From positions 229,460 to 293,459 of the forward strand of contig CAZXML010000001.1 of assembly GCA_964641245.1 (NCBI GenBank): a stretch of 64,000 bases of DNA. The letters run 5' to 3'. Position numbers and translations under genes: made by a program. The stretch comes from an uncultured Gammaproteobacteria bacterium. Lineage in GTDB: Bacteria; Patescibacteriota; Patescibacteriia; Magasanikbacterales; GWA2-37-8. The notes beneath the pieces were generated by a model. That model saw only the letters and a program-made list of their open reading frames with translations, had not been told where the DNA came from and made no database searches. Positions within the stretch are counted from its first letter, which is position 1. Each line of letters starts with the position of its first letter. This document shows, in pieces, positions 4,541 through 60,845 of the stretch.

Positions 4541-4571
4541 ACGGACTAATTATATCATAATCAATAAAATC

Positions 4572-4624: not shown

Positions 4625-5065
4625 CTATTGTTGAGCTATACCGGATGGGCTAAGGGAAATTCCTCCGCTCAATCCGTTAACTGTTGTTTCTAAGTTAGCA
4701 GTTACGATGTAAGAACTGGAAGTTGCTAATGTGTAAACGTAAGATTGGGTTGCTAAAGGATCTGACGGGACTTGACCCATATACGGGCTGCCACATCCGA
4801 CGGTTGTAAAGCCAGAAGCGTTTAAACAAGCTTGGCCAGTGGCTCCCAATGTGACGCCAGCACCTGCCGGGTAGGCAGTTTGATCAGTATAGTAAAGTTC
4901 CAAAGCGGTTTGTAATTGTTTTAAGTCGGACAAACGGCGCGCATCGCGGGCTTTTTGTCTGGCGTTTCCTAAGGCTACTACAGCTAAGGTTGATAATAAA
5001 CCAATAATAGCTATAACCACCAACAATTCAATCAAAGTGAAACCTTTCTTGTTCATGTTTTTCAT
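4625..5065 (-). CDS. Type IV pilin (prepilin with class III signal peptide).
   Basis: N-terminus [32 protein letters not shown] is a canonical G|FTLIELLVV prepilin cleavage and hydrophobic segment. A GGAGGGGG RBS lies upstream. Confidence 0.85.
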
Positions 5066-5152
5066 AGTTTCACCCCCTCTCCATAATTAATTCTGACATC
5101 ATTTTGCATACTTGGATTACATTAGACACGTCGCCATCATTTCATCACTGTG

Positions 5153-5236
5153 GAGTATTAAGTATTAGGTAGTAAGTATTATGCGACAATTTCGACTTGT
5201 ACGCTTAATACATAATACTTGATACTTAATACTAAA
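5153..5236. repeat. Family D element: inverted arrays of the heptamers (AAGTATT)n ... (AATACTT)n.
   Basis: Sequence gagtattaagtattaggtagtaagtatt...cttaatacataatacttgatacttaatact. Near-identical elements lie at 20182-20270 and 50955-51031. Confidence 0.7.
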
Positions 5237-5263: not shown

Positions 5264-5662
5264 CTATTTTTTATGCAAGACCGCCCGAACTTTATCCACA
5301 ACCTCTGATGGTTTAAAGTGGGTTTTTAGTAAATAACCGGCGGCGCCTTCGTCCAACCCGCGCTTAACATCATCTTTTTGGCCAAGGTTAGTAAGTAAAA
5401 TTATAGGGATATTTTTTATGGATGCGTCCGCCTTGACCGCTTCTAAAACCGCAAATCCGTCTAATTTTGGCAAGAGAATATCCAGCAAAACGATATCGGG
5501 CCTCTTTTTTTTGATATCGCTCAACCCCTTTTCACCATTATTGGCCATACTTACTTTAAACCCCTCCATTTCAAATTTTTTCTGATAAATTTCCGCCAGG
5601 AAAACGTCGTCTTCCACAATTAAAACATGGGATTGATTGTCTGACATAATTAAAATTAGCAA
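5264..5662 (-). CDS. Stand-alone response-regulator receiver (CheY-like REC) protein.
   Basis: 132 aa with the acidic pocket (VEDD...DIVLLDILLP), conserved T/S (LLTN) and K (GAAGYLLK) of REC domains. It sits inside the pilus gene cluster (PilH-like position). Confidence 0.75.
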   Translation of the reverse strand: MLILIMSDNQSHVLIVEDDVFLAEIYQKKFEMEGFKVSMANNGEKGLSDIKKKRPDIVLLDILLPKLDGFAVLEAVKADASIKNIPIILLTNLGQKDDVKRGLDEGAAGYLLKTHFKPSEVVDKVRAVLHKK

Positions 5663-5712
5663 TTAACAATTAGCAATTAACAATTGTTGGTTGTTAATTG
5701 TTTTTTGTTCAT
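5663..5712. repeat. Family F hairpin element (caattaacaattg palindrome plus ttgttaattgttttttgtt).
   Basis: Tandem agcaattaacaatt units form a CAATTAACAA/TTGTTAATTG stem followed by T-runs. The same motif lies at 26402-26470. Confidence 0.55.
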
Positions 5713-5715
5713 TAT

Positions 5716-6867: not shown

Positions 6868-7009
6868 AGTAACCTTAATTTCTAATAAGTTAAGTATACC
6901 ATATATGGGACTATTTGATAACTGGGGATAAATGATGTAAACTAAAGAAATAATGAAATTAGAAAATAAAGAAATTTCTTAATTTCGCAATTTCTCAATT
7001 TCCGTTTCT

Positions 7010-11535: not shown

Positions 11536-11604
11536 CTGTATGAGTTATGGGTAAATACATTATACCACATTGTTGGCATACTTAAAATATGTTATAATAA
11601 TAAC

Positions 11605-12096: not shown

Positions 12097-12164
12097 TGTC
12101 ATGCTGAACTTGTTTCAGCATCTACACACAAGACTAAAGATCCTGAAACAAGTTCAGGATGACA
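12097..12164. repeat. Family A' twin-hairpin element (TGTCATGCTGAA...TTCAGGATGACA).
   Basis: tgtcatgctgaacttgtttcagcatct...agatcctgaaacaagttcaggatgaca. A direct copy lies at 14725-14790 and a third at 34243-34304. Confidence 0.85.
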
Positions 12165-14718: not shown

Positions 14719-14724
14719 TTAATT

Positions 14725-14790
14725 GTCATGCTGAACTTGTTTCAGCATCTGCTTAAGAACGAAAGATCCTGAAACAAGTTCAGGATGACA
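14725..14790. repeat. Family A' element, direct copy of 12097-12164.
   Basis: tgtcatgctgaacttgtttcagcatct...agatcctgaaacaagttcaggatgaca. Confidence 0.85.
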
Positions 14791-17212: not shown

Positions 17213-17283
17213 TCCGAGGTGGTCTAATGGTAGGACAGCAGACTCTGAATCTGCTTATCTTGGTTCGAATCCAAGCCTCGGAA
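17213..17283 (+). tRNA. tRNA-Gln (anticodon CTG).
   Basis: Cloverleaf with acceptor tccgagg/cctcgga, anticodon stem gcaga/tctgc, loop ctCTGaa and T-arm cttgg-ttcgaat-ccaag. No CCA is encoded. Confidence 0.85.
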
Positions 17284-18581: not shown

Positions 18582-18612
18582 GACGGACTCTCCAAAACCG
18601 TCATTTTTTTTA
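18582..18612 (+). terminator. Intrinsic terminator.
   Basis: gacggactctccaaaaccgtc followed by attttttttagg. Confidence 0.55.
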
Positions 18613-20013
18613 GGCGAAAGGCAATTCTGCCAGCGGTGTTTCTTTCGGCTCTTCTTCCACAGCCTGTTGAACCCTTCTTTTTAACGGACTCTCGGTCATT
18701 TCTTCTATAGGCAAATTAATAGGCGGCTCGGCGCGTTTGCTGGCCGTTTTTTGTAATAGAGGGGCTTTAACCAACGGCAACGGGAAGTGCCACAAAGTAG
18801 CCAGCTCTTGGATATTTAATATATACGGATTTTTACCGGTTCTGATTTTTCTCTTTTTAAACGCGCTGACGAATCTTCTTTTAATTTCCAACGTGCGGTA
18901 ATCTCCAAAAGCATAATGAGCCTTGGTGGCCAGTACGGGTATGATAGCGTTGCGTCCGCTATAATTAAATTGATTCATAGCACCGATGAGGCCGTCCAGA
19001 CAACGGCTGGGATTGAATATTTCCTTTGGCGCGGCATATAAAACCCGGCACTTTATTTTGAAGCCGATTTTGGAAATTTTTTCTTCAATGGCCGCAACGG
19101 TATCTCTTACACCCGGAGTAAGGTCGGAAATTTTTCCGGGCATTTCTTCTTTTTTCTTAATAACCGGCCCCTCGGCCGGCGGACGGATGGCGTTTAAAAG
19201 CTCTTCCACGATAACATTAATAATTTTAAACAGAAAAAACTGCTCGGACACGTGCTTTTTATTGGTAATGATTTTTTTGATGAGCTCTATGCCTTTGGCT
19301 TTCCATGCTTCCGAAATCGGCTCTACAATAATTTGAAACCAAAGATTTTCTCCGGCGCCAATACGCGTAAAATTTTCCAAAATAGCGGCCATGGGGTCAT
19401 TGAATGTATAGTCGGGAGTAATACTGTGTTCAAATTCCGAGTAGGTTCGGATTGGGTATGGATCCGGAGCCGCTAGGCCAAATTCTAAACCGAAAATTTC
19501 GTGGGTTTCGTTTGGGTATTTGCCGGGAATAGCGCCGACATAATCCTCTACTTCGGTGATTTCGGCCATTGGATACTGGGCGTAAATGGCTGCTTCTACC
19601 AAATCTCGGTAATTGGCTTCGGTATAAATTAAAAATTGAATATAACCTTCTAAACTTATAATTTCCAAACTAAACCACCGCTGTTTTACTCCCTGCCAGT
19701 ATTTTTGCCCGATATTTGGCTCAAAAAGAGCGCCGCTAAGATGAGAAAAAATCTGTTCAACCGCTTTTGGGCTTTGAATGGTGTCTGTGGGAACATCAAC
19801 GGCCAGCACAATCCATTCCCATGTGCTTGTGTATTTTGCCTGCCGTACTTTAACCCAAAGTTCCATGCCCATAAAAAAGAAGATTAGGGCCACAATCGCC
19901 CACCCGACAATAGCAAAAATAGCCGACACTCTTTGGTCTGTTGGCAAATTTAAAATTTGGCTCCACAAGGAAAAATCTATAACAATGCCAAAAGGCAGTT
20001 CCGAAACCGGCAT
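18610..20013 (-). CDS. Membrane protein paralogous to the N-terminal (non-ATPase) half of the 12169-14718 T4SS-like ATPase.
   Basis: 467 aa. Blocks align with the ATPase N-half: SLEIISLEGYIQFLIYTEANYRDLVEAAIYAQYPMAEITEVEDY matches SFEIVVKDSKISFYVAMPDKIKGFLEQQIHAQYPHAEITEEPDY, and NIQELATLWHFPLP matches STEEMAGLWHLPTP. There is no Walker motif. Confidence 0.7.
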   Translation of the reverse strand: MPVSELPFGIVIDFSLWSQILNLPTDQRVSAIFAIVGWAIVALIFFFMGMELWVKVRQAKYTSTWEWIVLAVDVPTDTIQSPKAVEQIFSHLSGALFEPNIGQKYWQGVKQRWFSLEIISLEGYIQFLIYTEANYRDLVEAAIYAQYPMAEITEVEDYVGAIPGKYPNETHEIFGLEFGLAAPDPYPIRTYSEFEHSITPDYTFNDPMAAILENFTRIGAGENLWFQIIVEPISEAWKAKGIELIKKIITNKKHVSEQFFLFKIINVIVEELLNAIRPPAEGPVIKKKEEMPGKISDLTPGVRDTVAAIEEKISKIGFKIKCRVLYAAPKEIFNPSRCLDGLIGAMNQFNYSGRNAIIPVLATKAHYAFGDYRTLEIKRRFVSAFKKRKIRTGKNPYILNIQELATLWHFPLPLVKAPLLQKTASKRAEPPINLPIEEMTESPLKRRVQQAVEEEPKETPLAELPFA

Positions 20014-20014
20014 A

Positions 20015-20176
20015 TTATTTTTTTACAATGCTAAATACACCGCCGTAAATTATAAGGACACCAAAAATAGTCCACCACCAGCCGTATTGGCTGGATACCC
20101 AACCGCTATAATAGGCTAACGCGCAAATAATAGCCGCGCATAGCGCTACCATGTGTCGAATTGCATTATCGGACAT
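20015..20176 (-). CDS. Possible 53-aa membrane peptide translationally coupled to the downstream gene.
   Basis: MSDNAIRHMVALCAAIICALAYYSGWVSSQYGWWWTIFGVLIIYGGVFSIVKK, with the stop overlapping TAAtATG. No clear RBS. Confidence 0.3.
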   Translation of the reverse strand: MSDNAIRHMVALCAAIICALAYYSGWVSSQYGWWWTIFGVLIIYGGVFSIVKK

Positions 20177-20181
20177 ACAAC

Positions 20182-20270
20182 TAAGTATTAAGTATTAAGT
20201 ATTACGTATAAAGTATTATGAATCAAATATCGCTTTTACCTTAATACTTAATACATGATACTTGATACAA
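20182..20270. repeat. Family D heptamer inverted-array element.
   Basis: ctaagtattaagtattaagtattacgtataaagtatt...ccttaatacttaatacatgatacttgataca. Confidence 0.7.
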
Positions 20271-20348
20271 GTAACTTTTATAATTATACCACACCCCATA
20301 AAACAAAACAAAACCCGCTTTTGGCAGGTTCTGCTATGAAATAAGGTA

Positions 20349-23033: not shown

Positions 23034-23089
23034 AGTGGGAAATGTTAAGTACTAAGCGCTAAGTAATTAAGATCTAAGTTTGTTTAATC

Positions 23090-23395
23090 TTAATGTATTT
23101 TGATATTTTTGGCAAGGCCTGCCCGCGTTGAAGGCAATATAATTTTTTCCTTTTCAACCAGCTGAGCGGGCGTTTCCCGGCCTAAAATACTATTAAGTTG
23201 TTTTTTTATATCATCATATTTAAATTTTTCCTTATTTTCACTCGTCACATCAAAGCCGCCATTTTTTTCCACTATAATAACATTTGATTTTATCCGTAAT
23301 TTTTGGGTTTTTCTTCCTACCTCCAAAACAAATAGGCCGCGCAAAGAACCGATTTTATTTTCCACCGCTACCTTGCCTCCTGCTTGCAACAGCAA
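23090..23395 (-). CDS. Hypothetical protein.
   Basis: The ORF continues upstream without an ATG, so the start is uncertain. No recognisable domain. Confidence 0.35.
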   Translation of the reverse strand: MLLQAGGKVAVENKIGSLRGLFVLEVGRKTQKLRIKSNVIIVEKNGGFDVTSENKEKFKYDDIKKQLNSILGRETPAQLVEKEKIILPSTRAGLAKNIKIH

Positions 23396-26401: not shown

Positions 26402-26470
26402 ATAAATAATTAACAAATAACAATTAGCAACTAACAACCCGCCAATCGATTGTTAATTGTTTTTTGTTAA
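26402..26470. repeat. Family F hairpin element.
   Basis: taattaacaaataacaattagcaactaacaa...ttgttaattgttttttgttaattgttaatt shares ttgttaattgttttttgtt with 5663-5712. Confidence 0.55.
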
Positions 26471-27261
26471 TTGTTAATTTTTCTCTTGTTGTTTGCCCAG
26501 ATAAAACCCATGGTCTTATCAAAATGAGAAGGAAATACCTGAACACCAAAGCCGTTGGCTCTTAATTTTTCGGCAATATCCTTGTGCCTAATACCCATAT
26601 GATACTCCAAAATGACAAAATTTACCATCGCAAAATCGCTGGCAGACATACTTTCAAACAACTCGTACTCCCCTCCTTCAATATCCATTTTTAAGAGAGA
26701 TATCTTTTTAATTTTATTTTTTTTACAAAAATCGGCAAAAGAAAAAGCGTGAACCGCGATGGTTTTCTCGGCGGTTTCGTCTGCACCGGTGTAATCCGCG
26801 AATAAGCGGCCGGATGATGAACCGCCGGCCTCTGTCAAATGATGGTTATGGCTGTCGGCGGATAAAACCAGCTGTCTTTCGCCGCTTTCCGAAGCTAACG
26901 CCCCGGCAACAACCTCCACTCCCAAAATTTTATTCTCGTCCAAATGTTGTTTAAGCAATTTTAAATTTTCCGGCTCCGGTTCTATGCCAAATATTTTTAC
27001 TTTTTCATTTAAAGCCCGGCAATACATACTAAAAAATCCAGCATGCGCGCCCACGTCTACTATTGGGTGCTTAGCGGTTTTTATAGTTTCATCCGCGGCT
27101 CGGTATTCTTTGAGCTTAAAAATTTCGTTAAAAACACTCTGATCCGCTTCGTCGCGCAGATACACCTGCCAATTGTGCCCGTTTAATTTTAGGTTTACTT
27201 TTTGCATTGATTTAACGTAATCACGCCGGGTAGCGTCCATTGAAACCCGGCGCTTAATCAT
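26467..27261 (-). CDS. FkbM-family SAM-dependent methyltransferase.
   Basis: VVDVGAHAGFFSMY glycine-rich SAM motif in an FkbM-like layout. Confidence 0.65.
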   Translation of the reverse strand: MIKRRVSMDATRRDYVKSMQKVNLKLNGHNWQVYLRDEADQSVFNEIFKLKEYRAADETIKTAKHPIVDVGAHAGFFSMYCRALNEKVKIFGIEPEPENLKLLKQHLDENKILGVEVVAGALASESGERQLVLSADSHNHHLTEAGGSSSGRLFADYTGADETAEKTIAVHAFSFADFCKKNKIKKISLLKMDIEGGEYELFESMSASDFAMVNFVILEYHMGIRHKDIAEKLRANGFGVQVFPSHFDKTMGFIWANNKRKINN

Positions 27262-27328: not shown

Positions 27329-27399
27329 TTCCGAGGCTTGGAATCGAACCAAGATAAACAGCTTCAAAGGCTGCTGTCCTACCTTTAGACGACCTCGGA
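27329..27399 (-). tRNA. tRNA-Gln (anticodon TTG).
   Basis: The reverse complement tccgaggtcgtctaaaggtaggacagcagccttTTGaagctg...ttggttcgattccaagcctcggaa is nearly identical to the CTG isoacceptor at 17213. Confidence 0.85.
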
Positions 27400-28311: not shown

Positions 28312-28357
28312 ATCTTGAAAATTTCTAATTATTAATTTCTAATAACCAGTGTCAAAT

Positions 28358-28460
28358 TGTCATCCTGAATGTAATGAAGGATCTCTGTCTCAATCGCCAA
28401 ACGGACAGAGATTCTTCGCTTCACTCAGAATGACAAATGACGTGTGACCTGAATGACAGT
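28358..28460. repeat. Family A TGTCAT-type element.
   Basis: ttgtcatcctgaatgtaatgaaggatctctgtctcaatcgccaaacggacagagattcttcgcttcactcagaatgacaa differs by 1 nt in the core from the copy at 60740. Confidence 0.85.
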
Positions 28461-29201: not shown

Positions 29202-29315
29202 TTGTCATCCTGAATGAAATGAAGGATCTCTGTCCGTTTAGCTGTCATTCCCATAACAATGGGAATCCAGACAATCATCGATTCGACTGGATTCCCGCTT
29301 TGGCGGGAATGACAA
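29202..29315. repeat. Family A half-element fused to a family E element (TGTCATTCCC...GGGAATGACAA).
   Basis: cttgtcatcctgaatgaaatgaaggatctctgtc is followed by tgtcattcccataacaatgggaatcc...ggattcccgctttggcgggaatgacaa. Confidence 0.75.
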
Positions 29316-32351: not shown

Positions 32352-32569
32352 ATTGACCTCGACCGAACAAATAAATTAAACAAAAAAACTTTCCTTGGCA
32401 GGAAAGAAAGTCGACCTTTATCTTTCCCCGTTGGGGCTAGATTTGGCACCTTATCCCGACTAAGTCGGGACAGGTTGTCGGCAGGTCTTAGGGCTAGTTC
32501 CCTCGCTGCACTCTTGATAACTATATCGTACCAGGTATTTCTTAATTATCAAAAAATACCTGGGGATAA

Positions 32570-32947: not shown

Positions 32948-33018
32948 AGCCCCCTGTCAGAATCGGACTGACGTTTGTGGTTTACGATACCACCGTTCTG
33001 CCACTGAACTAAGGGGGC
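32948..33018 (-). tRNA. tRNA-Thr (anticodon CGT).
   Basis: The reverse complement gcccccttagttcagtggcagaacggtggtatCGTaaaccac...gtcagtccgattctgacagggggct folds as a cloverleaf. The T-loop is atypical (TCCGATT). Confidence 0.7.
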
Positions 33019-33028
33019 ACTCATCTTG

Positions 33029-33099
33029 AGCGGGATACCGGAATCGAACCGGCCTCTCATCCTTGGGAAGGACGTATACTACCGATGTACTAATCCCGC
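33029..33099 (-). tRNA. tRNA-Gly (anticodon CCC).
   Basis: The reverse complement gcgggattagtacatcggtagtatacgtccttCCCaaggatgagaggccggttcgattccggtatcccgct folds as a cloverleaf. Confidence 0.85.
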
Positions 33100-35429: not shown

Positions 35430-35472
35430 AAGTAAATTCTAATTTCTCAATTTCCTAATTTCTAATCTCGAA

Positions 35473-35577
35473 TTGTCATCCTGAACGGAGTGAAGGATCT
35501 CTGTCCGTATAGTTTTCACCAACCAGACAGAGATTCTTCGCTTTGCTCAGAATGACAGTTACGTACGGGATGACAAT
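35473..35577. repeat. Family A TGTCAT-type element plus an extra terminal fragment.
   Basis: ttgtcatcctgaacggagtgaaggatctctgtc...gacagagattcttcgctttgctcagaatgacag, followed by ttacgtacgggatgacaatgc. It supplies the last 6 codons and the stop of the Mur ligase gene. Confidence 0.8.
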
Positions 35578-44859: not shown

Positions 44860-46628
44860 GTATGTCTGTTACAGAGGAAATGATTAAATATCTGCTGGCC
44901 AATCCCCCCAAAACGGAGGATGCTTTTGGCGTGGTTTTAAGAAAAATTTTGCGTCAGACCAAAAACGCGCAGGCCAACATTCCCACCAAATCGTCGCTGA
45001 TTAAATCATATCATAAATTGTTAAAACAGCACAAGATTAAAAAGAGTCCGGCGCTGGAAAAAACCTTAATGAAGCGGGCGGTGCGCACTTTGTCCGGCGT
45101 CAGCATTATTACCGTGCTCACCAAACCATTCCCCTGTCCCGGAAAGTGCATTTATTGCCCCACCGAAGCGCGCATGCCTAAAAGTTACATTTCCGATGAA
45201 CCGGCCGCGGCGCGCGCCTTAAGTTTGGCGTTTGATCCTTACCAACAGGTTGTTCAACGCTTTAAGGCTTTAGAAAATAACGGCCACCCCACCGATAAAG
45301 TGGAGTTGATTATTAAGGGTGGAACATGGAATTCGTATCCGATTAAATACCAATACTGGTTTGTTGCCAGATGTTTTGAAGCGTGCAATAATGTAAAATT
45401 TAATGCAGCCAAGCCAAGGGGCGCGCGTTCGGCAGTAGACGAGAAATTTTCTTTGGATAAATTGCGCCAATTGAGTTTCAAAATTCAAAAAGCAAATGAA
45501 AACGGCAAACACCGCCTGATTGGTTTAACCATAGAAACCCGCCCCGATTTTATAAACGCCGGCACTATCGCGGCTATGCGGGAAATGGGTACCACCAGAA
45601 TAGAACTAGGCGTACAAAATACCAATGAAAAAATATTAAAATTAACAAAACGCGGCCATGGCACGGCCGAAGTAAAACGCGCCACCAAAATGCTAAAAGA
45701 TTACGGTTTTAAAGTTGACTACCATTTAATGCCCCAATTGCCCGGAGCGACTCCGGCGACGGATTTAAAAATGATGTTAAAAGTTTTTGACGACCCGGAT
45801 TACCGTCCGGATATGATTAAGGTGTATCCGTGCACGGTGGTGAAAACTTCCGAACTTTACGACTGGCTAAAACGGGGTGAATACAAAACGTATTCAGACC
45901 GCCATTTGATAAACATGCTGAAAAAATTTAAAGTAAAAGTTCCGCGCTACGTGCGCATTTCCCGGTTAATCCGCGATATTCCCGGTCATCATATTCAAGC
46001 CGGAAATAAAATGACAAACTTGCGCCAGGTAATCCAGGAGGAGTTAAAAAAAGAAGGATTAAAATGCAGTTGTCTGCGCTGTCGCGAGGTCGGACATCAA
46101 CACATCGAGTCAAATGTCAAAAGTCAAAAGTCAAAAGTCAAAATGTTTGTAGACAAATACGAAGCCAACGGCGGGACGGAATATTTCTTAAGTTTCGAAG
46201 ATACCAAACGCGACGTTGTTTACGCGTTTTGCCGATTGCGTGTTCTCAAGCCTGTCATCCTGAGCAAAGCGAAGGATCTCTCTCTTTCAAACAAAAGGGA
46301 TTCTTCGGTCACTTCACTCCCTCAGAATGACAACCACAACCTCCCCAACGAAGGAATTAGCGCGGCCGAATTAGTCAAAATGGGCTACCCCGCTTTTATC
46401 CGCGAACTCCATACTTACGGCCAACTTATAAACATTGGGAAAAAAGCCAAAGGGGCTAGCCAGCATATTGGCATGGGCACAAAATTAATTGTTGAAGCGG
46501 AAAAAATCTGTAGAAAAAACAAGGCCTACAAATTAGCCGTAATTTCCGGAGTGGGTGTACGCGAATATTACAAAAAATTTGGCTACAAACTGGAAAACAC
46601 CTATATGGTAAAGACTTTGAAAAAGTAG
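44841..46628 (+). CDS. elp3: Elp3-family radical-SAM/GNAT protein (tRNA uridine-34 modification homologue).
   Basis: CPGKCIYCP radical-SAM cluster motif, LIGLTIETRPDF, and a C-terminal GNAT region (HIGMGTKLIVEAEKIC). A start at 44862 (MSVTEEM) is also possible. It carries two in-frame repeat insertions. Confidence 0.8.
   Translation: MYLFLTCMSVTEEMIKYLLANPPKTEDAFGVVLRKILRQTKNAQANIPTKSSLIKSYHKLLKQHKIKKSPALEKTLMKRAVRTLSGVSIITVLTKPFPCPGKCIYCPTEARMPKSYISDEPAAARALSLAFDPYQQVVQRFKALENNGHPTDKVELIIKGGTWNSYPIKYQYWFVARCFEACNNVKFNAAKPRGARSAVDEKFSLDKLRQLSFKIQKANENGKHRLIGLTIETRPDFINAGTIAAMREMGTTRIELGVQNTNEKILKLTKRGHGTAEVKRATKMLKDYGFKVDYHLMPQLPGATPATDLKMMLKVFDDPDYRPDMIKVYPCTVVKTSELYDWLKRGEYKTYSDRHLINMLKKFKVKVPRYVRISRLIRDIPGHHIQAGNKMTNLRQVIQEELKKEGLKCSCLRCREVGHQHIESNVKSQKSKVKMFVDKYEANGGTEYFLSFEDTKRDVVYAFCRLRVLKPVILSKAKDLSLSNKRDSSVTSLPQNDNHNLPNEGISAAELVKMGYPAFIRELHTYGQLINIGKKAKGASQHIGMGTKLIVEAEKICRKNKAYKLAVISGVGVREYYKKFGYKLENTYMVKTLKK
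46109..46143 (+). repeat. Tandem heptanucleotide repeat (GTCAAAT then GTCAAAA x4) inside the elp3 coding sequence.
   Basis: gtcaaat gtcaaaa gtcaaaa gtcaaaa gtcaaaa, encoding SNVKSQKSKVK. Confidence 0.85.
46264..46332. repeat. Family A TGTCAT-type element inserted in-frame in elp3.
   Basis: tgtcatcctgagcaaagcgaaggatctctctc...ccctcagaatgacaa, encoding VILSKAKDLSLSNKRDSSVTSLPQND. Confidence 0.8.
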
Positions 46629-50494: not shown

Positions 50495-50947
50495 TCATTT
50501 ATTCGACAGCTTCTTTAGTTCTTTTTCGAAAGTGCGGACATCTCTGAAATCGCGGTAAACGCTGGCAAAACGGATGTAGGCGACTTTATCAAAACTTCTC
50601 AAATGTTTTATGACAACCTCTCCCAGTTCTTTGCTGGAAATTTCTTTGGCTTTCTTTTTTTGGATATCTCGTTCTATGGAATGAATAAGGCGGTGAAAGC
50701 TGTCGCGGGTATATGGCCGTTTGGTTAAAGCCATTTTGATACCGCCCTCTAACTTGTCGCGCATATAAATTTCCCGGTGCCCGTCGCTTTTTACCACAAT
50801 AACATCCAGCAACTCCATTTCTTCAACGGTAGAAAAACGATACTGACATTTATCGCATTCCCGGCGCCGGCGGATAGACAAGTCGTCTTCTGCCGGACGC
50901 GTATCAATCACGCTAATTTCCTTGTTATTACAAATTGGACATCTCAT
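50495..50947 (-). CDS. nrdR: Transcriptional repressor NrdR.
   Basis: MRCPICNNKEISVIDTR...CDKCQYRF zinc ribbon plus an ATP-cone. Confidence 0.85.
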   Translation of the reverse strand: MRCPICNNKEISVIDTRPAEDDLSIRRRRECDKCQYRFSTVEEMELLDVIVVKSDGHREIYMRDKLEGGIKMALTKRPYTRDSFHRLIHSIERDIQKKKAKEISSKELGEVVIKHLRSFDKVAYIRFASVYRDFRDVRTFEKELKKLSNK

Positions 50948-50954
50948 GCGACAA

Positions 50955-51031
50955 GTATAAAGTATTAAGTATTAGGTATTAAGTATTTAACAAATATTCC
51001 CATAATACTTGATACATAATACTTAATACTT
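50955..51031. repeat. Family D heptamer inverted-array element.
   Basis: gtataaagtattaagtattaggtattaagtatt...cataatacttgatacataatacttaatactt. Confidence 0.7.
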
Positions 51032-51102
51032 CAAGAATAGTGTATCACTTATTTAATAACAAAACAACCCCAATTTTATAGGGATTGCTTTGAATTCAGG
51101 GG

Positions 51103-53955: not shown

Positions 53956-53976
53956 AAATATTCGCTTATTATAACA

Positions 53977-54749: not shown

Positions 54750-54780
54750 GATTGTGAATTTAGTATTTAGTATTTAGGAT

Positions 54781-56718: not shown

Positions 56719-56758
56719 ACTTTTTTAGAAATTAGAAATTAGAAATTAGAAATTTATG

Positions 56759-60100: not shown

Positions 60101-60712
60101 ATTTAAATTTAATTTCCCGTCTCCGCAAACACCGGATTCCATTGTGGAAATTTCCTCATTATAATTACAGACACCGCTACTGTCGCTGATTTTAAAAATG
60201 GTGGTGCTAATAAAACTGGCCACAAAACTTTCGTCATTTGCCGGTGAAATTCCGTCATCTTCAAATTTGGCGCGCACAGTATAAACTCCGGGCGTGGTGG
60301 AAACTATATACCGGTAGGCGTAAGAATCTTTGGAGCAGGCAAAACTGAAGCGTCTATTCGCAACGCTCCAGCCGGTTTCCGGACTGTGCAGAACGCAGGT
60401 TTCATTAGCCGCGGTATCCGGCGGTTTGCAATCATTATCACTTAAACAAAACCGATTAGTGCTAATAACGCAGGTACCCGCCGGGGACAGTTGATTTATC
60501 GGGTCGGTAGGGAAAGCGACACCCGCGGCATTCCCTAATAATGACCATGATGGCCAGACACTTAAAGTCTGTCCGGTTAAATAGGTTCCTTCTTTTAGGG
60601 TGGGAGCGGTGGCGGCTACAACTTTTTGGTATACAAAAAAACTAAGTGTCGCCACCATTACCAAAGAAAGAAAAATTAATTTTTTTGTTTTCATACAACT
60701 ATTATACCACAA
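57143..60712 (-). CDS. Giant secreted surface protein with Myxococcus-type Cys-rich repeats, a LamG/ConA-like domain and a C-terminal FN3 domain.
   Basis: Signal peptide; at least six CxxCGDG/CGNG...GE.CD repeats (for example CGDGKLNLNKGEQCDPPG, CGNGALEAGETCDDGTF); LamG signature LDEVKIYNRALSASEV; FN3 region (PQNLVVTGVGSGSVQMAWNAP...YRYKVTAVNANGES). Confidence 0.75.
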   Translation of the reverse strand: MWYNSCMKTKKLIFLSLVMVATLSFFVYQKVVAATAPTLKEGTYLTGQTLSVWPSWSLLGNAAGVAFPTDPINQLSPAGTCVISTNRFCLSDNDCKPPDTAANETCVLHSPETGWSVANRRFSFACSKDSYAYRYIVSTTPGVYTVRAKFEDDGISPANDESFVASFISTTIFKISDSSGVCNYNEEISTMESGVCGDGKLNLNKGEQCDPPGRIEYEAGCSSAVPPLKNLKVCNSSCKWGPPSTTLCSKFSHCGNGALEAGETCDDGTFLNGKYNHCNISCTGPVDSPTPGRCGDGHLQEAYEVCDPVTPGVEKYSLISRNNSCSWDCQNWGPYCGDSIIQTQYGETCDGSQTCSVDGNPGTKVCGSNCLKKDRDAVAWWRFENDLVGVYRTDDSSVNGNNAICDNKARACPVVGTGKYGHGFEFGSSFGRRYLIAKSSPSFSLVATSSLTVEAWIYPTEDERALYPYQRIVEKEGPFGFRSYDLEFNASTTLHNIRFNLWNNNLQTAVVDSNSSIATNTWTHVVGTYSRNGNSHITKIYVNGVLENTNTVSSDTAIMAVGTGDLVIGKSAPVGSGNYFFGSLDEVKIYNRALSASEVQNNYQSGWFCAATSTLTPVLPVGSCGNNIVDAGETCDQGLVNNGHVCTPAYGKPCSYCSSDCQNTIDVQPGQYCGDGVIQSPEKCEVFEENIFSSASTTGRTEVLKTPGRNGYQELACSAESKDPRTIKKGAKSCADCSVGVVRNCVTCGVVSDGVEVHGNVVNVLENALWDSFSGTGLTPDPLFAKKITGGGSLGLAIGSNTFASLVGLDIKNDTSMDFMSYTLRKPDNLGSRDVTFDYMKAIIASDPICSADANPEKKYQMYVNYDWARPLNFRVVAEPQPWQYDLVLSPVISSTLRAHDLRIVTSWVGSGDFYSGVLNPFIVNPEIEGPSYCYLNVCEASQKNYATGINYYSTPNSEAYGIWYHGFTATPGQTDSEAFTIDTSAMSGNTYAFYVRSPSYPIRTFKNTVKLKVEIYLPDTDTNPYHFGTPAKTYFFQSASPSDNQNARYWQVFNINKPATTLSLHDIIDVNAIITDPEHFQYVTLTPALSAPQNLVVTGVGSGSVQMAWNAPASNGGSAITSYKVYRKTYLFFDFYSLVYTTLNGSSTSFNNTGLTNGTRYRYKVTAVNANGESAASNEVEAVPNREI

Positions 60713-60720
60713 AGTATTAC

Positions 60721-60845
60721 ATTGTCATCCCGAGCGAGTGGTTGTCATCCTGAATGTAATGAAGGATCTCTGTCTCAATCGCCGAACGGACAGAGATTCT
60801 TCGCTTCACTCAGAATGACAAGTGGTGTGCGGTCAGAATGACAAA
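60721..60845. repeat. Composite family A element with nested partial ends.
   Basis: ttgtcatcccgagcgagtgg is followed by ttgtcatcctgaatgtaatgaaggatctctgtctcaatcgccgaacggacagagattcttcgcttcactcagaatgacaa, then gtggtgtgcggtcagaatgacaa. Confidence 0.85.

Follow-up and report, generated by a model that had tools for sequence, protein, structure and literature searches.

Three inverted arrays of seven-nucleotide units, called E1, E2 and E3 here, were found in a 64,000-nucleotide stretch of contig CAZXML010000001.1 (GenBank assembly GCA_964641245.1, positions 229,460 to 293,459 of the forward strand); this whole stretch is referred to as the window. The contig is from an uncultured groundwater bacterium labelled Gammaproteobacteria and assigned by GTDB to the Patescibacteriota. 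In each element a row of AAGTATT-like units is mirrored by a row of AATACTT-like units. With high confidence, the sequence context places E1–E3 between predicted, conserved promoter boxes and the start codons of genes. We give an even chance to the explanation that they are transcribed heptamer-repeat leader hairpins acting in cis on the mRNA, and our confidence that they affect expression is moderate.

Results

Structure of the three elements

The genes flanking the elements encode a type IV pilin, a response regulator (RR), PilM, SecDF, FtsZ and NrdR. Homologues of NrdR and SecF place the window in the Patescibacteria (candidate phyla radiation, CPR), near 'Parcubacteria group bacterium Gr01-1014_13' and Magasanikbacteria. 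Read directly, every element has four or five AAGTATT-like units, a spacer of 16–26 nt and four AATACTT-like units. The first arm of E1 (5153–5180) is GAGTATT AAGTATT AGGTAGT AAGTATT and, after a 26-nt spacer, the units of its second arm (5207–5234) are AATACAT AATACTT GATACTT AATACTA. E2 begins with AAGTATT three times, ACGTATA and AAGTATT (20183–20217), and continues after 25 nt with AATACTT AATACAT GATACTT GATACAA (20243–20270). E3 has AAGTATA AAGTATT AAGTATT AGGTATT AAGTATT (50953–50987), a 16-nt spacer and AATACTT GATACAT AATACTT AATACTT (51004–51031). The parts of the elements are as follows.

5153–5180: E1 start-proximal arm, four AAGTATT-like units, AATACTT-like in the pilin sense RNA (sequence reading, probe, complementarity)
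5181–5206: E1 spacer or loop, 26 nt (sequence reading, folding)
5207–5236: E1 promoter-proximal arm, the 5' arm in the sense RNA, four AATACTT-like units (sequence reading, probe)
20183–20217: E2 start-proximal arm, five AAGTATT-like units, 5 nt short of the ATG at 20177
20218–20242: E2 spacer or loop, 25 nt
20243–20270: E2 promoter-proximal arm, four AATACTT-like units
50953–50987: E3 start-proximal arm, five AAGTATT-like units, 5 nt short of the nrdR ATG at 50947
50988–51003: E3 spacer or loop, 16 nt
51004–51031: E3 promoter-proximal arm, four AATACTT-like units

A two-unit probe (at most two mismatches) had 22 matches in the window against 0.89 expected, 19 of them within E1–E3, and none of 100 shuffles attained 22. 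The two arms are 81–93% complementary. An initial annotation of the window, made from the sequence alone, had described these arrays as a distinct repeat family, each in the 5' region of a minus-strand gene. The arrays are real and the family is distinct, although the three to four units counted per arm were too few. The position was also correct; the genes are the pilin gene, the pair formed by a 53-aa peptide and a DUF8128-family gene, and nrdR.

Promoter boxes, terminators and start codons

Genes, promoter boxes and terminators around the elements, and some further boxes of the window, are the following.

4625–5065, minus strand: type IV pilin-like gene (N_methyl and T2SSG domains)
5066–5152, minus strand: rest of the pilin leader, with a conserved strong Shine-Dalgarno sequence (SD), GGAGAGGGGGTGA; homologous to the leaders of the related loci L133 and L141
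5248–5256, minus strand: pilin extended −10 box TGATATAAT, directly after the RR stop
18610–20013, minus strand: DUF8128-family gene, after the 53-aa peptide open reading frame (ORF)
20016–20177, minus strand: conserved 53-aa membrane peptide ORF (MSDNAIRH...)
20283–20291, minus strand: extended −10 box TGGTATAAT, conserved in L154–L157
20307–20335, minus strand: classical intrinsic terminator of secF (GC stem and T-run), separate from E2
50495–50947, minus strand: nrdR
51039–51047, minus strand: weaker extended −10-like box TGATACACT
51068–51083, minus strand: classical intrinsic terminator of ftsZ (stem and TTGTTTTGTT), separate from E3
1484–1492, 4549–4557, 11590–11598 and 60701–60709: TGnTATAAT boxes 6–9 nt upstream of start codons

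A box of the form TGnTAnnnT ends 11, 12 and 7 nt before E1, E2 and E3, respectively; the chance of this is 0.025 per site and about 1.6e-5 for all three. On the gene strand the order at E2 and E3 is gene, terminator, promoter box, palindrome and ATG. If the RNA starts about 7 nt past the box, its predicted 5' end is 0–5 nt ahead of the first heptamer. In the window, TGNTATAAT, the extended −10 motif, occurs at 15 sites against 3.3 expected, and 12 of these are on the gene-rich minus strand. Leaderless mRNAs appear to be common in this genome, because five of the 15 boxes are only 6–9 nt from a start codon. Where a box is followed by a long leader, the length is nearly always due to a palindromic repeat.

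The initial annotation had also suggested that the elements have promoter activity, citing embedded TTGATA and TAATAC hexamers, or that they bind a dimeric regulator. The boxes precede the elements and are present in relatives that lack them, or stand at equivalent positions there, and we therefore predict that E1–E3 are downstream of the promoter and are not promoters themselves. The embedded TTGATA is on the plus strand only, in the arm that faces away from the minus-strand genes, and a promoter scanner found no gene-strand match within E1 or E2. In the sigma-70 check, for −35 and −10 hexamers 16–18 nt apart that face the gene, E3 alone had a match on the gene strand, TTAATA-17-TATACT (9/12) in the proximal arm, which ends 6 nt before the nrdR ATG in a leaderless geometry. 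This match speaks for a promoter, as do the distant CPR copies L100 and L101, in which divergent genes abut both arms, so that promoters must be in or near the element. A leaderless promoter TAATAC-N6-ATG, attractive for the distant CPR copies, was rejected for E1–E3 because of the conserved −10 boxes upstream.

The location in 5' regions is in line with a regulator site, and binding of a protein could explain the dyad symmetry and the fixed polarity of the arrays. The omega repressor of pSM19035 binds heptad arrays in this manner, and a site downstream of the transcription start could be a roadblock for a repressor. However, the orthologous slots in relatives are empty or have other units (ATCAATT, AATCCGA/TTTCGAA, AATTTCA, AGAAATT), and no regulon that would unite the pilin, peptide and nrdR genes is obvious. 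In Bacteroidota the AAGTATT unit is found at gene 3' ends, also between convergent genes, unlike a dedicated operator. A single dedicated regulator is unlikely, since the family spans CPR, Bacteroidota and other groups. Overall, we consider it very unlikely that the elements are promoters or that a dimeric regulator uses them as an operator array.

SD sequences are almost absent from this genome, and most starts read ...AGT ATG or are coupled stop to start; the pilin gene is the exception. E2 and E3 end 5 nt ahead of ATGs that have no SD. It is therefore conceivable, if unlikely, that the elements serve SD-independent translation, with the AATACTT-type array as a landing site for the ribosome or an RNA-binding protein (S1, Csp). 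The opposite arm would sequester this site or, in intercistronic copies, join stop and start. In line with such a role, two direct arrays of the window (54750 and 56721) reach the ATG, and in about 20 distant CPR copies, among the matches listed, 0–7 nt separate the last AATACTT unit from the start of a long ORF, in some copies at both arms. TAACTGA repeats, for which this role has been proposed (PMC4679880), have the same geometry and no ribosome-binding site (RBS). Against it, E1 is 88 nt upstream of the pilin ATG, and the leader between them has the strong conserved SD. Relatives translate the same genes without an array, the units vary between genomes, the AGAAATT/AATTTCT family is found in both orientations upstream of starts, and the Bacteroidota copies adjoin stop codons. 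A different rationale, that the units supply stop codons in all frames, was rejected; TCGAAAT-type units have none, and a simpler sequence would suffice.

Orthologous leaders in relatives

The region from the RR gene to the pilin gene was compared in 30 PilM-anchored loci. In nearly all relatives the RR stop is followed by TGTGGTATAAT, a leader of 35–50 nt, the SD AGAAAGGGGGTGA and the ATG. The box is kept as TG(T/G)GGTATAAT in about 15 relatives and the SD is conserved across about 25. The window has retained both, with E1 inserted just after the box. In L126 and L133 the same slot is filled by heptamer palindromes of other units (ATCAATT/AATTGAA and AATCCGA/TTTCGAn, respectively), and in L141 by a non-repeat hairpin.

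At the secF–peptide site, L154–L157 have kept the terminator, the TGnTATAAT box and the 53-aa peptide. The leader has the AAGTATT palindrome in the window, an AATTTCA/AATGTCA array in L154, an AAATCCG/TTCGAAT palindrome in L155, two AGAAATT units in L156 and nothing in L157. Between ftsZ and nrdR, relatives have the terminator and zero repeats, and at the position of TGATACACT they carry a canonical box (TGTATAAT; GGTATAAT plus a TATAAT-N8-ATG box; or TGCTAGAAT). The sole second copy of E3 that was found (L118, another JGI contig) is identical. An identical nrdR locus is present in JGI sample 3300010391, and relatives are present in the Hainich samples ERZ1292xxx. Three array-bearing operon junctions of the window are array-free in relatives, with gaps of 1–33 nt.

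These comparisons show that the heptamer class is defined by architecture and position, not by sequence, and that the leader slot behaves like a hypervariable cassette site, in which each lineage has different repeat families within conserved surroundings. The arrays arise and grow in place and turn over fast, while the slot occupied stays conserved. They form a fast-evolving class of heptamer simple-sequence repeats, which in this clade of scarce SD sequences and frequent leaderless mRNAs has time and again taken the place directly before start codons. Growth in place is indicated by three cases: the four AATTTCT units of the window at 56721–56758 correspond to a single one in L120 and L122, the array before ybeY starts from the ...AATCCC TAA end of the upstream gene, and one array is inside a coding loop. 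E1–E3 are dispensable; they extend leaders that would otherwise be short or missing and were probably built by amplification of heptamers in place.

The secD promoter region (TTGCCA-17-TAAGAT) is conserved, and the repeat in the leader that follows differs per genome. The AAGTATT family recurs at this different locus in L156, as a palindrome (region L156:640-745). L155 has a TGTCAT palindrome and a TTCATAA array, L154 has GC-rich CTCTCCCC palindromes, the window has nCTTAnn units (region 23034–23100) and L157 has nothing.

Folding of sense and antisense RNA

In silico, the sense strands of E1–E3 have minimum free energies of −20 to −26.5 kcal/mol (z = −3.1 to −6.7), and none of 200 shuffles folded as well. 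For the antisense strand, z was −6.3 to −9.0 against shuffles. The imperfections of the stems are G.U on the plus strand and A.C on the minus strand. The plus strand is C-rich overall, despite its G.U imperfections, and GC skew was rejected as the cause of its better folding, since it gives no explanation.

The AAGTATT family in other genomes

Species-representative genomes were scanned for two AAGTATT units followed, after 20–50 nt, by AATACTTRATAC. At least 117 loci have this arrangement, against a chance expectation well below one as estimated from pattern length and collection size. Among the matches listed, the Bacteroidota-type carriers are Bacteroides isolates and metagenome-assembled genomes (MAGs), Prevotella, Flavobacterium, Saprospiraceae, Cytophagales and Sphingobacterium, and the CPR carriers are Peregrinibacteria/Peribacteria, Saccharibacteria, Parcubacteria, Microgenomates and Gracilibacteria. 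Two further labels occur among the matches listed, Gammaproteobacteria (a few MAGs) and Nanoarchaeota (one). Variant units are mirrored between both arms. The swapped arrangement, (AATACTT)n...(AAGTATT)n, occurred 0 times against dozens of the observed one; this count covers the loci seeded with the observed arrangement, the window and L156. Viral contigs had neither arrangement and are hence uninformative on polarity. Gene context among the matches listed was as follows.

Bacteroidota copies: 65 classified, 22 convergent and 2 divergent (background about 14% and 14%); median distance 4 nt to the stop and 26 nt to the start
CPR copies: 24 classified, 1 convergent and 6 divergent (background 11.5% and 14%); median distance 1 nt to the stop and 5 nt to the start

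A bias towards gene starts, which the initial annotation had made the test of its regulatory model, is therefore seen in the distant CPR copies among these matches, whereas the Bacteroidota copies are biased towards stops. Many of the distant CPR copies listed occupy the entire gap from stop to start.

The Bacteroidota context raises the question of a bidirectional terminator, or of a REP-like element that stabilises the 3' end of the upstream gene. Besides their enrichment between convergent genes, the Bacteroidota copies listed start a median of 4 nt after stops, and about 13% of 113 copies elsewhere (matches listed) have a flanking A/T run. In contrast, convergent genes rarely enclose the CPR copies listed (1 of 24, below background). 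Upstream of E2 and E3 in the window, classical terminators that belong to secF and ftsZ come first and promoter boxes next, and the terminator check found that the stems of E1–E3 are AU-rich, with no T-run after the elements. A 3'-end or terminator element, which the pooled gene context had suggested, was dropped for the window after the split by phylum and in view of these separate terminators. We regard this function as highly improbable for E1–E3.

One Bacteroides copy is at NC_021017, positions 1,316,391–1,316,464. In Bacteroides copies (e.g. L052, L097, L089, L103 and L042) many loops share the boxes CCATGCGGA and GCTACG; unlike the CPR copies, they resemble a dispersed family with a common internal sequence. 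At one orthologous site of B. xylanisolvens and B. vicugnae (L008:4391-4464, L076:293-359, L033:304-377) the same two genes flank the element, collinear and about 95% identical. The 40-nt loop is reverse-complemented between the two species, with 38 of 40 positions identical after the flip, and two B. xylanisolvens genomes differ in how many units their arms have. This site resembles a short invertible stretch of DNA between heptamer arms.

Other repeats in the window and database searches

Seven is the sole enriched tandem period in the window (61 sliding windows, against 0–2 for periods 4–12). All arrays of the window but one are intergenic. Those outside E1–E3, which the initial annotation had missed, are given below.

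5654–5713: AATTAAC/GTTAATT palindrome filling the pilM–RR junction
6947–7002: GAAATTn/AATTTCn palindrome, ending 7 nt before the cysS ATG
26402–26482: AATTAAC-type palindrome in a 29-nt gene junction
46106–46147, plus strand: array of four AAAGTCA units in the part of a radical-SAM (ELP3-like) ORF that encodes a variable loop
54750–54790, minus strand: direct array of AAATMCT units (sense orientation) that takes up the 31-nt gap before ybeY and is missing from relatives
56721–56758, minus strand: direct array of four AATTTCT units (sense orientation) that takes up a 40-nt gap

The 295 kb of clade sequence analysed contain 27 arrays of period 7, and no other period has more than 2. The arms of the clade arrays abut a start only in 6 cases, a stop and a start in 5, and a stop only in 0. 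A general lag-7 signal in intergenic DNA vanished after removal of the strong arrays, and degenerate arrays are claimed only in 8 of 57 upstream regions. Palindromes with longer units are found at the pilM–RR junction of relatives (about 10–11 nt, AAAGCAnnTTA, and about 8 nt, AAAGTTnn; L128:1305-1420 and L149:3296-3410), so period 7 is preferred but not exclusive.

The array at 46106–46147 encodes ...NVKSQKSKVKM..., and the radical-SAM loop is 3 aa longer than in relatives. (AAAGTCN)n arrays are also present within protein-coding genes at L124:6417-6453 and L133:6826-6865. Further dispersed palindrome families (TGTCATCCTGAA..., TGTCATGCTGAAC... and TGTCATTCCC...) are at 12097–12164, 14724–14790, 28357–28436, 35471–35560, 60742–60821 and 29243–29314. 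TGTCAT-type palindromes are present in the leaders after the TGnTATAAT boxes at 11559–11567 and 53968–53976 (ftsA), the slot that heptamer palindromes use.

The loops of E2 and E3 have CAAATAT(C/T) in common, and in a check for mobile palindromes the loops of the window were otherwise dissimilar. The sequence TCGAAATT is common to the E1 loop, one Gracilibacteria copy and another Patescibacteria copy (L113 and L077), and it is itself a heptamer unit in palindromes of the relatives L133 and L155. No direct repeat was evident by eye in the flanks of E1–E3. No link to a transposase was seen for the window copies, though no search was aimed at transposases. Scanning the window with Rfam 15 found no family over E1–E3 at the gathering threshold; the matches in the window are a SAM riboswitch (32415–32523, minus strand) and four tRNA genes within 17213–17283, 27329–27399 and 32948–33099, which are unrelated to the elements. 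Rfam 15 also gave no family for six Bacteroides loci (E ≤ 1), where a sub-threshold mir-251 match is due to chance. The 14-mers of the arrays were found in the full-text literature in a single unrelated human paper, and in none with a bacterial context.

Discussion

We favour leader hairpins as the explanation of E1–E3. From the sequence we infer active promoters at the boxes, an RNA hairpin in vivo and an effect of this hairpin on expression. The palindrome would be transcribed as the first 80–90 nt of the mRNA and would fold into an AU-rich hairpin of 28–32 bp, starting 0–5 nt from the predicted 5' end. The arrays may enlarge in place via 7-bp slippage, and their arms would be kept mirrored, probably by template switching or by recombination between the arms. 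Such a 5'-terminal stem-loop could alter the stability or processing of the mRNA, or access to the start codon. Long duplexes are substrates of RNase III. No RNase III signature motif was found in about 300 kb of clade sequence, which is a small part of a genome and hence uninformative. Changes in unit number may offer a tunable setting, as in the heptamer leader hairpin of Haemophilus hmw1A.

Several observations weigh against this explanation. The E3 box TGATACACT is weak, and the transcription starts are predictions. The plus (antisense) strand outfolds the sense RNA in E1, E2 and E3, by 1.4–7.4 kcal/mol, and 60 copies in tandem context elsewhere have no sense-strand folding advantage (31 vs 28, p = 0.33). 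Because the antisense folds better and there is no bias elsewhere, there is no sign of selection on the sense RNA fold. The elements are missing from the closest relatives and hence dispensable; in the pilin slot, those with 88–90% PilM identity have no repeat of any kind. An upstream TGnTAnnnT box was found in 0 of 20 distant CPR copies. The same palindrome is at gene 3' ends in Bacteroidota, and a leader role therefore cannot be its general function.

Given the better antisense folding, the main rival explanation is that the elements are neutral or selfish structural repeats, formed by heptamer slippage and template switching, tolerated where they are harmless and without a role in expression. 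We consider this possible, though on the doubtful side. It fits the lack of a sense-strand folding bias and the fast turnover of the arrays, which are absent in relatives at 88–94% protein identity. It also fits their growth in place, once inside a coding loop, and the Bacteroides copies, whose strain-variable unit number and inverted loop reflect instability at the DNA level. Polymerase slippage has been proposed for the excess of heptamers (PMC4692102). On the other hand, the polarity is fixed in the loci counted, and AAGTATT is found again in other phyla. Arrays occupy the leader slot, and not the longer stretch from stop to promoter, in three of three cases in the window and again in L126, L133, L154, L155 and L156. 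An 80-nt hairpin that opens an mRNA and stops 5 nt short of a start codon lacking an SD is also unlikely to be without effect on expression.

A broader proposal is that polar palindromes bring stop and start together for ribosome transfer (hairpin-mediated coupling or shunting) in non-SD bacteria across phyla, with unit number as an evolvable dial, or that a dedicated activity builds AAGTATT arrays at transcript ends in CPR and Bacteroidota. Its probability is in our view decidedly low.

The leader hairpins proposed for E1–E3 are closest in layout to the heptamer repeats of Haemophilus influenzae. In hmw1A, (ATCTTTC)n is transcribed from the first base, the 5'-untranslated region forms a hairpin that is cut by RNase III, and adhesin expression varies inversely with repeat number (PMC12721329). 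As in hmw1A/hmw2A, the 7-nt units in the window come right after the promoter, at the predicted 5' end of the mRNA, and would form a long leader hairpin; one of the genes, the pilin gene, encodes a surface structure, and the repeat number is variable. Unlike in hmw, where one repeat arm pairs with a G-rich non-repeat arm, both arms here are mirrored arrays, and the organism and the unit sequence are unrelated. RNase III cleavage, expression linked to repeat number and phase variation are features of hmw, whereas the elements described here are known from sequence alone.

The TAACTGA repeats of Beggiatoaceae, Cyanobacteria and some Bacteroidetes are 2–6 tandem heptamers that contain stop codons (MacGregor 2015, PMC4679880). 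They are mostly a few nt upstream of RBS-less starts and rarely in ORFs, relatives have shorter, repeat-free gaps, and their spread across phyla has no evident transfer mechanism; in all this they are similar to the arrays reported here. E2, E3, the arrays at 54750 and 56721 and the 20 or so distant CPR copies match their placement at start codons, but E1 does not. The TAACTGA units are also different and are direct repeats, with one inverted case in 170 sets, whereas E1–E3 always pair two opposed arrays around a loop, and their place with respect to promoters can be defined.

Mazel et al. (1990) reportedly described the STRR heptanucleotide repeats of heterocystous cyanobacteria. These have been mentioned alongside the GGGAATC and GGGGAYT repeats of Xanthomonas and Nostoc (Rehm 2015, PMC4692102). 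They share with our arrays an intergenic excess of period 7 only, variable length and sequence between close relatives, and some inverted copies (stem-loops or cruciforms). Unlike ours, they are G-rich, with G-quadruplex potential, or GC-balanced, and belong to large genomes; the arrays in the window are AT-rich, come from a minimal CPR genome and keep to the leader or start-codon position.

5'-terminal stem-loops stabilise the mRNAs of ompA and papA (pilin), as do aprE leaders, according to work cited in PMC3997798. E1–E3 resemble these stabilisers, as they are cited there, in having a stable hairpin a few nt from the (predicted) 5' end, including that of a pilin mRNA. The cited hairpins are unique, conserved and demonstrated to affect half-life, while those of the window are repetitive, hypervariable and read from sequence. 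Like the REP/BIME elements of enterobacteria, the AAGTATT copies are dispersed, imperfect palindromes in transcribed intergenic DNA, and the Bacteroidota copies share the 3'-end placement. A REP unit is about 35 nt long, GC-rich and free of internal tandem repeats, and REPs are found together with RAYT transposases; the window copies, unlike them, are in 5' leaders.

An excess of heptamers in bacterial intergenic DNA has been noted since 1990 and was quantified in 2007. The AAGTATT palindrome is a new family among these known heptamer repeats, with an obligate double array and fixed polarity. The window gives a clean view of it, with a compact genome, readable TGnTATAAT promoters and terminators, and many relatives, which together allow the repeats to be located in the slot that runs from the −10 box to the start codon. 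In practice, the elements break assemblies and can mislead gene callers and predictors of promoters and terminators in CPR genomes. The occurrence of one unit, AAGTATT, in one polarity at opposite gene ends in CPR and Bacteroidota may be due to transfer, a shared generator or convergence. Should the hairpins modulate translation or the stability of mRNAs, organisms with very few regulators would have in them a simple, fast-evolving dial for expression.

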